DNA of 64,000 bases from Escherichia coli (GTDB lineage Bacteria; Pseudomonadota; Gammaproteobacteria; Enterobacterales; Enterobacteriaceae): assembly GCF_017348835.2 (NCBI RefSeq), contig NZ_CP071375.1, one strand, 5' to 3'. The translations under genes were made by a program, and so were the position numbers. Below the pieces are notes generated by a model. It was given only the letters and a program-made list of their open reading frames with translations, did no database searches and was not told the DNA's origin. Numbering within the stretch: position 1 is the stretch's first letter; the number at the start of each line of letters is the position of its first letter. This document shows, one piece after another, positions 39,757 through 40,069 of the stretch.

Positions 39757-40069
39757 AGCGTTACCTCAAAATGAGTCAGTAAATTGTGCTTATTTTAGCA
39801 TTTGGCCTGGCCCGCCCGGCTCGACTGTGATCGCAGAAAGCCTTTTTCTTCCAGACTTCTATCATGGCGTAAAAATCAAAAAATTACCTGCTTTATTGTG
39901 GCGATATTCCATGGGATGGATTAGCACATTTATCTTCGTTTTGCGAATTACATGACAGTCCGAAACAAGATGAAAAAGTATTTAAAAAAGGGGGAGGAAG
40001 AATGAGTAGGACGAATTATTCTGAACCAGAAAGCAATCGGGCAGCGTCGTGCTGCCCGTGTACATACTT

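Follow-up and report, generated by a model that had tools for sequence, protein, structure and literature searches.

The yaeH-dapD gap of the window, the 64,000-nucleotide stretch of Escherichia coli DNA analysed here, is best read, at a probability of about 0.85, as a deletion derivative of a small yaeI-geneX islet and thus as a yaeI-null haplotype of the dapD-yaeH locus. According to the proposed course of events, a short ancestral dapD-yaeH spacer would have been replaced, in the Escherichia ancestor or in a donor, by an islet bringing its own dapD terminator, yaeI, the tightly coupled geneX (236 aa) and its own yaeH upstream region. Three forms now segregate in Escherichia: the rare full islet, a form with yaeI only and about 30 bp of geneX, and a form with neither gene. 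This third form, the one in the window, retains the last 50 bp or so of geneX together with about 100 bp of unmatched DNA. It would have arisen once, when yaeI and most of geneX were deleted in a geneX-containing ancestor and not from the K-12 form, and would then have drifted neutrally. The single origin is suggested by the junctions that the alleles have in common, and the direction of the events was argued by parsimony, using the 80 species sampled and the few genomes in which the islet was seen.

Organization of the dapD-yaeH locus in the window

The features of the locus are the following, with the evidence in brackets.

36545-37969, plus strand: degP (ORF list)
38106-39281, plus strand: cdaR (ORF list)
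39370-39756, minus strand: yaeH, DUF3461 protein of 128 aa, intact (ORF list)
39757-39875, minus strand: islet-type yaeH upstream region, probable promoter and 5' UTR (alignments)
39876-39926, minus strand: 3'-end remnant of geneX (DNA and protein alignment, HMM)
39907-40034, no strand: segment of 128 bp in place of the K-12 yaeI segment, overlapping parts of the remnant, filler and terminator region (pairwise BLAST)
39927-40029, no strand: AT-rich filler of 103 bp (without match to the yaeI-geneX cassette profile)
40030-40069, minus strand: islet-type dapD terminator region (terminator scan, alignment, nhmmer)
40070-40894, minus strand: dapD, 274 aa, intact (ORF list and annotation of the identical E. 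coli PE164 record)
40925-43597, minus strand: glnD (ORF list)

The gap between yaeH and dapD measures 313 bp (39757-40069) by the ORF list and the sequence, as the preliminary description had it, and the order degP-cdaR-yaeH-gap-dapD-glnD was confirmed to be collinear with a K-12-type record (L001, strain ST18). Over yaeH-dapD, annotated yaeH included, the RefSeq genome of E. coli PE164 agrees with the window at 100% identity, and its gap is annotated as gene-free. YaeH itself is conserved at 93-99% amino acid identity across 80 enterobacterial species. The reported absence of yaeI was borne out, since tblastn of K-12 YaeI against the whole 64-kb window gave nothing (best E value 0.1, elsewhere) and thus neither fragments nor an intact flanking copy; at the locus, nhmmer with the cassette profile likewise found no residual yaeI. 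The 77-aa plus-strand ORF, earlier called unconvincing, is a mechanical ORF with a TTG start (39722-39955). It was rejected as a gene: the counterparts in other alleles have 49-58 aa, and the distal half of the ORF falls into DNA specific to the allele.

Two hairpins were observed between cdaR and the end of yaeH, at 39313-39345 and 39346-39368. One is a 15-nt inverted repeat (CATTCCCCTCAGCCC/GGGGAGAGGGGAATG). The other is a terminator-like stem-loop, where the convergent genes cdaR and yaeH are probably both terminated.

Comparison with the K-12 form

In L001 the yaeH-dapD gap is 1027 bp and contains yaeI, so the K-12 layout given in the preliminary description was correct. The 714 bp said to be missing stand as a net difference (1027-313), but not as a clean deletion. 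Pairwise BLAST placed the homology between window and K-12 form at 39370-39906 and 40035-40894, and between these blocks 128 window-specific bp (39907-40034, GC 37.5%) replace 842 K-12-specific bp. The latter consist of yaeI with 11 bp past its stop and 18 bp ahead of its start. A global alignment with very cheap gaps yielded noise only and was set aside.

The junctions were inspected for repeats, as had been proposed. The longest direct or inverted repeats are 5-7 nt, which is chance level, and the repeat scan showed none at the junctions. Target-site duplications, terminal inverted repeats and a neighbouring recombinase were all not found at the junctions and among degP, cdaR, yaeH, dapD and glnD. 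On these grounds an excision or insertion scar of an IS, a transposon or an integrative element was rejected.

Frequency of the yaeI-null allele

The 128-bp segment is present in 3338 of 5426 complete E. coli genomes (61.5%), at 90-100% identity and always as a single copy, and the yaeI segment in 2084 of them (38%). Carriers of the yaeI-null allele include O157:H7, CFT073, JJ1886/ST131, ATCC 25922 and O91; carriers of yaeI include K-12 derivatives, BL21(DE3) and O111:H11. All aligned yaeI-null alleles have both the left and the right junction in common. Outside E. coli, the allele was found with identical junctions in Escherichia sp. E1V33, a cryptic Escherichia species, at 94.5% identity, and 66 of the 70 metagenome contigs matching the segment are collinear with the locus.

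The window therefore carries a common E. coli yaeI-null haplotype, which is the majority form, and the K-12 form is the minority. A strain-specific deletion, one of the two possibilities offered in the preliminary description, is refuted by this distribution. A recent deletion of that kind or an assembly artefact would be suggested by the contrast with K-12 alone, and has practically no probability left when the same allele recurs in thousands of complete genomes, in collinear metagenome contigs and in a second species, with an allelic diversity (92-100% identity) that implies considerable age. Variable presence of yaeI is an already known, catalogued gene-content polymorphism; the gene is listed among the phylogroup-A-enriched accessory genes in a pan-genome study (PMC5422975). 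At dapD-yaeH it is K-12 that is the odd one out, and its gene order is not the species norm.

Two further variants were noted. In E. coli strain 1506 (H71, NZ_CP059288.1, 3696192-3697810) yaeI is broken by an IS1-family element, a separate route to yaeI loss. In E. coli BS-04 (L089, NZ_CP172819.1, 182315-182611) the short allele is degraded further, to 297 bp; 28 bp are deleted, including part of the geneX remnant, and the dapD-proximal filler is now an A/G-rich stretch.

Four independent human-gut metagenome contigs (L102, L117, L119 and L144) follow the window to position 40102, 33 nt within the dapD 3' end, and then enter the middle of ruvA and run on into ruvB. Contig L119 contains only 38 nt of ruvA before another switch. 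These dapD-ruvA junctions are either a recurrent assembly chimera or come from a rearranged or engineered strain.

The yaeI-geneX islet and its remnant in the gap

In a few genomes a 236-aa ORF, here called geneX, lies 11-14 nt downstream of yaeI. The full arrangement dapD-yaeI-geneX-yaeH was found in some E. albertii (CP117570), two cryptic Escherichia lineages, E. coli GF43 and Pseudocitrobacter cyperus; the loci include those of Escherichia sp. MOD1-EC7003 and of two short Logan contigs. GF43 is the sole full-islet genome among the 5426 complete E. coli. Enterobacter sp. kpr-6 (L022) carries geneX without yaeI at the same site.

A piece of this gene is left in the window. Positions 39876-39926 (about 50 bp) correspond to the stop and the last 16 codons of geneX, reading as C, a stop, SIPWNIATIKQVIF and the final stop, and are thus broken by a stop. 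In a local DNA alignment of the remnant with record L016 the score was 33, against 10.5 +/- 1.2 for shuffled sequences. A protein HMM of the geneX family matched the frame of the remnant (E value 1.4e-4), tblastn recovered it from the whole window (E value 0.006), and nhmmer with the cassette profile gave 8.8e-58 for 39757-39926, the remnant included. In total, the residual coding sequence amounts to the last 16-19 codons of geneX within 39876-39935.

The K-12 form also holds a geneX end: after yaeI come the last 30 bp or so of the gene (...ITRIKQVIF and the stop), equivalent to 39876-39906 of the window. As the geneX remnant of the window is the longer of the two, this form did not derive from the K-12 form and would therefore stem from a geneX-bearing ancestor. 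The K-12-type junction is common to E. coli, another Escherichia lineage (L005) and E. albertii NBRC 107761. Because junctions are shared by several species, each deletion is either single and old or has spread across species by recombination.

Islet loci, including those of kpr-6 and of a Superficieibacter species with a yaeI pseudogene, agree with both E. coli forms in the type of their dapD terminator and in the sequence upstream of yaeH, which means that the islet brings its own flanks. The gap of the window thus contains the islet-type terminator, the islet-type yaeH upstream region and a residue of geneX; a residue of yaeI and full traceability of the gap to the islet are absent. In this sense the deletion scar suspected in the preliminary description holds: the margins of a larger insert are still there in the gap, and with them the stop of geneX and the 16 codons before it.

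The spacer in other Enterobacteriaceae

A survey with one genome per species, anchored on YaeH, yielded 80 enterobacterial loci, with E. fergusonii and E. marmotae not among them. In about 70 of the 80 species the dapD-yaeH spacer is 109-125 bp without yaeI; the genera concerned include Citrobacter, Klebsiella, Enterobacter, Raoultella, Kosakonia, Cedecea and others. Apart from the surroundings of the ribosome-binding site, this short spacer aligns with neither E. coli form, and neither of them can therefore represent the ancestral empty site.

These data bear directly on the second possibility raised in the preliminary description, that yaeI is an insertion in K-12. If the gap were a never-occupied site and yaeI had entered the K-12 lineage alone, the absence of yaeI between dapD and yaeH in most enterobacterial genera would be expected, and the K-12-specific segment does look like a tight cassette, with only 11 and 18 bp around the gene. 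The gap of the window is, however, 313 bp instead of about 110 and has no homology to the spacer of Citrobacter, Klebsiella or Enterobacter. Within it lie the end of geneX, which follows yaeI downstream in intact islets, and the islet-type terminator and yaeH upstream region. The K-12 form carries a geneX remnant of its own and is itself a deletion product, and its yaeI segment is without flanking target-site duplication or terminal repeats (longest repeat 7 nt, within chance). A naive empty site in the window is accordingly highly improbable. An insertion of yaeI by itself does not fit a K-12 form that has lost geneX; what does hold is that the whole yaeI-geneX islet is inserted relative to the spacer of about 110 bp.

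Other genes were encountered in the same spacer: a YdeP-like molybdopterin oxidoreductase in Enterobacter wuhouensis (L045, 1461-3749), an MFS metabolite/H+ symporter in Salmonella enterica subsp. diarizonae (L055, 2453-3754), a 57-aa lipoprotein-like ORF in Enterobacter sp. BIGb0383 (L061, 3619-3792) and a yaeI pseudogene in Superficieibacter (L080, 3223-3760). The dapD-yaeH spacer is a recurrent insertion spot.

Origin of the filler

The 103 bp at 39927-40029 gave no match to the cassette profile in nhmmer. A distant-mode search of the 5426 E. coli genomes found no paralogue, only the single copy at this locus. There was no genuine match in plasmids and none in viral contigs; all 70 metagenome matches lie at the dapD-yaeH locus, with no other genuine context, and among the 80 enterobacterial loci nothing matched beyond the carriers of the yaeI-null allele. 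The matches in PLSDB were Mb-size records. Records H142-H148 of that database (0.4-4.9 Mb) carry the dapD-yaeH locus; they have evidently been filed as plasmids by mistake and represent whole chromosomes or pieces of them. The same error probably accounts for two or three 'plasmid' occurrences among the E. coli genomes.

As these 103 bp match nothing in the islet or elsewhere, one simple deletion does not suffice for the whole allele. The short form may have come from a geneX-only intermediate that had lost yaeI first, or from recombined divergent islet alleles, the 103 bp being what is left, beyond recognition, of a strongly divergent geneX or yaeI allele. Such a history is possible, if distinctly less probable than the main reading. 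Alleles of geneX are extremely divergent (59% amino acid identity between E. albertii and MOD1-EC7003, with saturated dS), a geneX-only locus exists in Enterobacter sp. kpr-6, weak collinear matches (CGGACTG, AACGAAGA) occur upstream of the firm remnant, and the nhmmer envelope extends 20 nt past it. Against this, local alignment, HMM and nhmmer gave no statistically supported similarity to geneX beyond 39935, and identity falls abruptly from 85% to noise past the firm remnant. The 20 bp or so of filler next to the remnant might be further decayed geneX, as the faint matches hint.

Neutral evolution of the segment

Nucleotide diversity (pi) was measured across 40 distinct haplotypes of the short form, with these values.

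geneX remnant: 0.036
filler: 0.051
terminator region: 0.088
third codon positions of yaeH: 0.041
third codon positions of dapD: 0.077

In the same haplotypes, 17 of the 110 filler columns of the alignment contain indels. With diversity at the synonymous level and indels, the filler evolves neutrally, and the 128 bp are regarded here as non-functional remains.

A functional replacement of yaeI by a small protein or small RNA in the 128-bp segment was considered very unlikely. The segment persists in most E. coli, and a 23-codon ORF (40002-40073, plus strand), intact in most alleles, has a Shine-Dalgarno-like run (GGGGGAGGAAG) with GGAGG 4 nt upstream of its ATG. Yet diversity of the segment is at least that of synonymous sites and indels fall within the Shine-Dalgarno-like run. 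Between the window and the aligned allele of 13TMH22 the ORF has 6 nonsynonymous and 2 synonymous differences, and its ATG is lost in BS-04; on the substitution pattern and the loss of the ATG it was rejected as a gene. No Rfam family was recognized in the gap, the only hit being sroE at 40028-40074 with 22.7 bits against a gathering threshold of 51, which was dismissed because it coincides with the terminator hairpin and scores under that threshold. The promoter scan likewise indicated no site in the gap, so that the segment is without Rfam family or promoter-like site.

Retained flanks and consequences of the allele

Intact dapD with its terminator hairpin is still present in the window, as is the conserved region upstream of yaeH. 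The hairpin was located by terminator scan at 40038-40058 (CGGGCAGC-ACGAC-GCTGCCCG), in a region that aligns with yaeI-bearing alleles (nhmmer E value 5.8e-7). Past the hairpin the U-tract is interrupted in the window (ATTGCTTTCT), while K-12 has TTTTTTT, and this interruption might allow more read-through of the dapD terminator.

A stretch of 119 bp ahead of yaeH (39757-39875) is common to K-12 and every yaeI or geneX locus, and contains conserved blocks in every islet-bearing genus. Across the 40 haplotypes pi is 0.003 in this region versus 0.04-0.08 at synonymous sites, more than tenfold lower. This stretch is probably a promoter/operator under tight constraint that came in with the islet, with TGnTAAAAT as a candidate extended -10 element. 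No covarying RNA structure was found upstream of yaeH; a structured RNA was rejected on the strength of a single compensatory pair and a positive covariation term. In all Escherichia, yaeH would be driven by a putative islet-derived, strongly conserved upstream region.

YaeI is a calcineurin-like phosphoesterase with a Tat signal (Metallophos; NCBIfam equivalog 'phosphodiesterase YaeI'), and where present the gene is under purifying selection (dN/dS 0.09-0.17). The protein is not known for more than a phosphodiesterase activity in vitro. Beyond the loss of YaeI, the allele of the window would appear to have no functional effect. A transposon screen paper mentions a link of the YaeI annotation to lipid A metabolism (PMC7414163).

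Age and distribution of the islet alleles

The allelic lineages at the islet are much deeper than its flanks, as judged from yaeI and geneX of six loci (L001, L004, L005, L016, L084 and L088). Between K-12 and GF43, dS is 0.74 for yaeI and 0.15 for dapD; E. albertii and MOD1-EC7003 give a dS of 0.89 for yaeI. The islet is patchily distributed at its single site, for which the best explanation is that it was transferred by recombination within dapD and yaeH, both highly conserved, and then decayed repeatedly. For the geneX product a fold was predicted with confidence (pLDDT 90), for which no structural neighbour was found in the PDB.

A more far-reaching scenario may be put forward tentatively, as a possibility of rather low probability: an ancient polymorphism of three forms, each shared across Escherichia species and with alleles that would greatly predate the flanking genes, with the islet moving between genera by recombination in the conserved flanks, an orphan geneX product of novel fold partnering the periplasmic phosphodiesterase YaeI, and balancing or niche-dependent selection. 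If true, the long-term upkeep of the three forms would point to such selection on the function of the islet, although drift and recombination are the likelier cause. For studies of YaeI it is relevant that geneX, the lost partner gene, survives undamaged in E. albertii and in a small number of further strains.

Comparison with known arrangements of the locus

The arrangement of K-12, yaeH-yaeI-dapD (b0163-b0166; L001 and other K-12 derivatives), has the same gene order and flanks as the window at 98-99% identity. The dapD terminator hairpin, 150 bp upstream of yaeH and a 30-bp geneX remnant are common to both. They differ in the interior, where K-12 has an intact yaeI of 270 aa within 842 bp and the window 128 unrelated bp. 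The closest counterparts are the RefSeq genomes without yaeI (O157:H7, CFT073, JJ1886/ST131, ATCC 25922 and PE164), which carry the allele of the window with identical junctions and an unannotated gap; apart from BS-04, such alleles differ from the window only by point differences and small indels in homopolymer runs.

The full islet of E. albertii, MOD1-EC7003, GF43 and P. cyperus occupies the same site as the gap of the window and has the same terminator type and yaeH upstream region, and the end of its geneX aligns with 39876-39926. It keeps yaeI and geneX intact, whereas the window has lost both save the geneX remnant. The enterobacterial spacer of about 110 bp, finally, resembles the window in being gene-free between dapD and yaeH, but it has its own terminator (AAAAAGCGGG...CCCGCTTTTTTT) and its own sequence upstream of yaeH.
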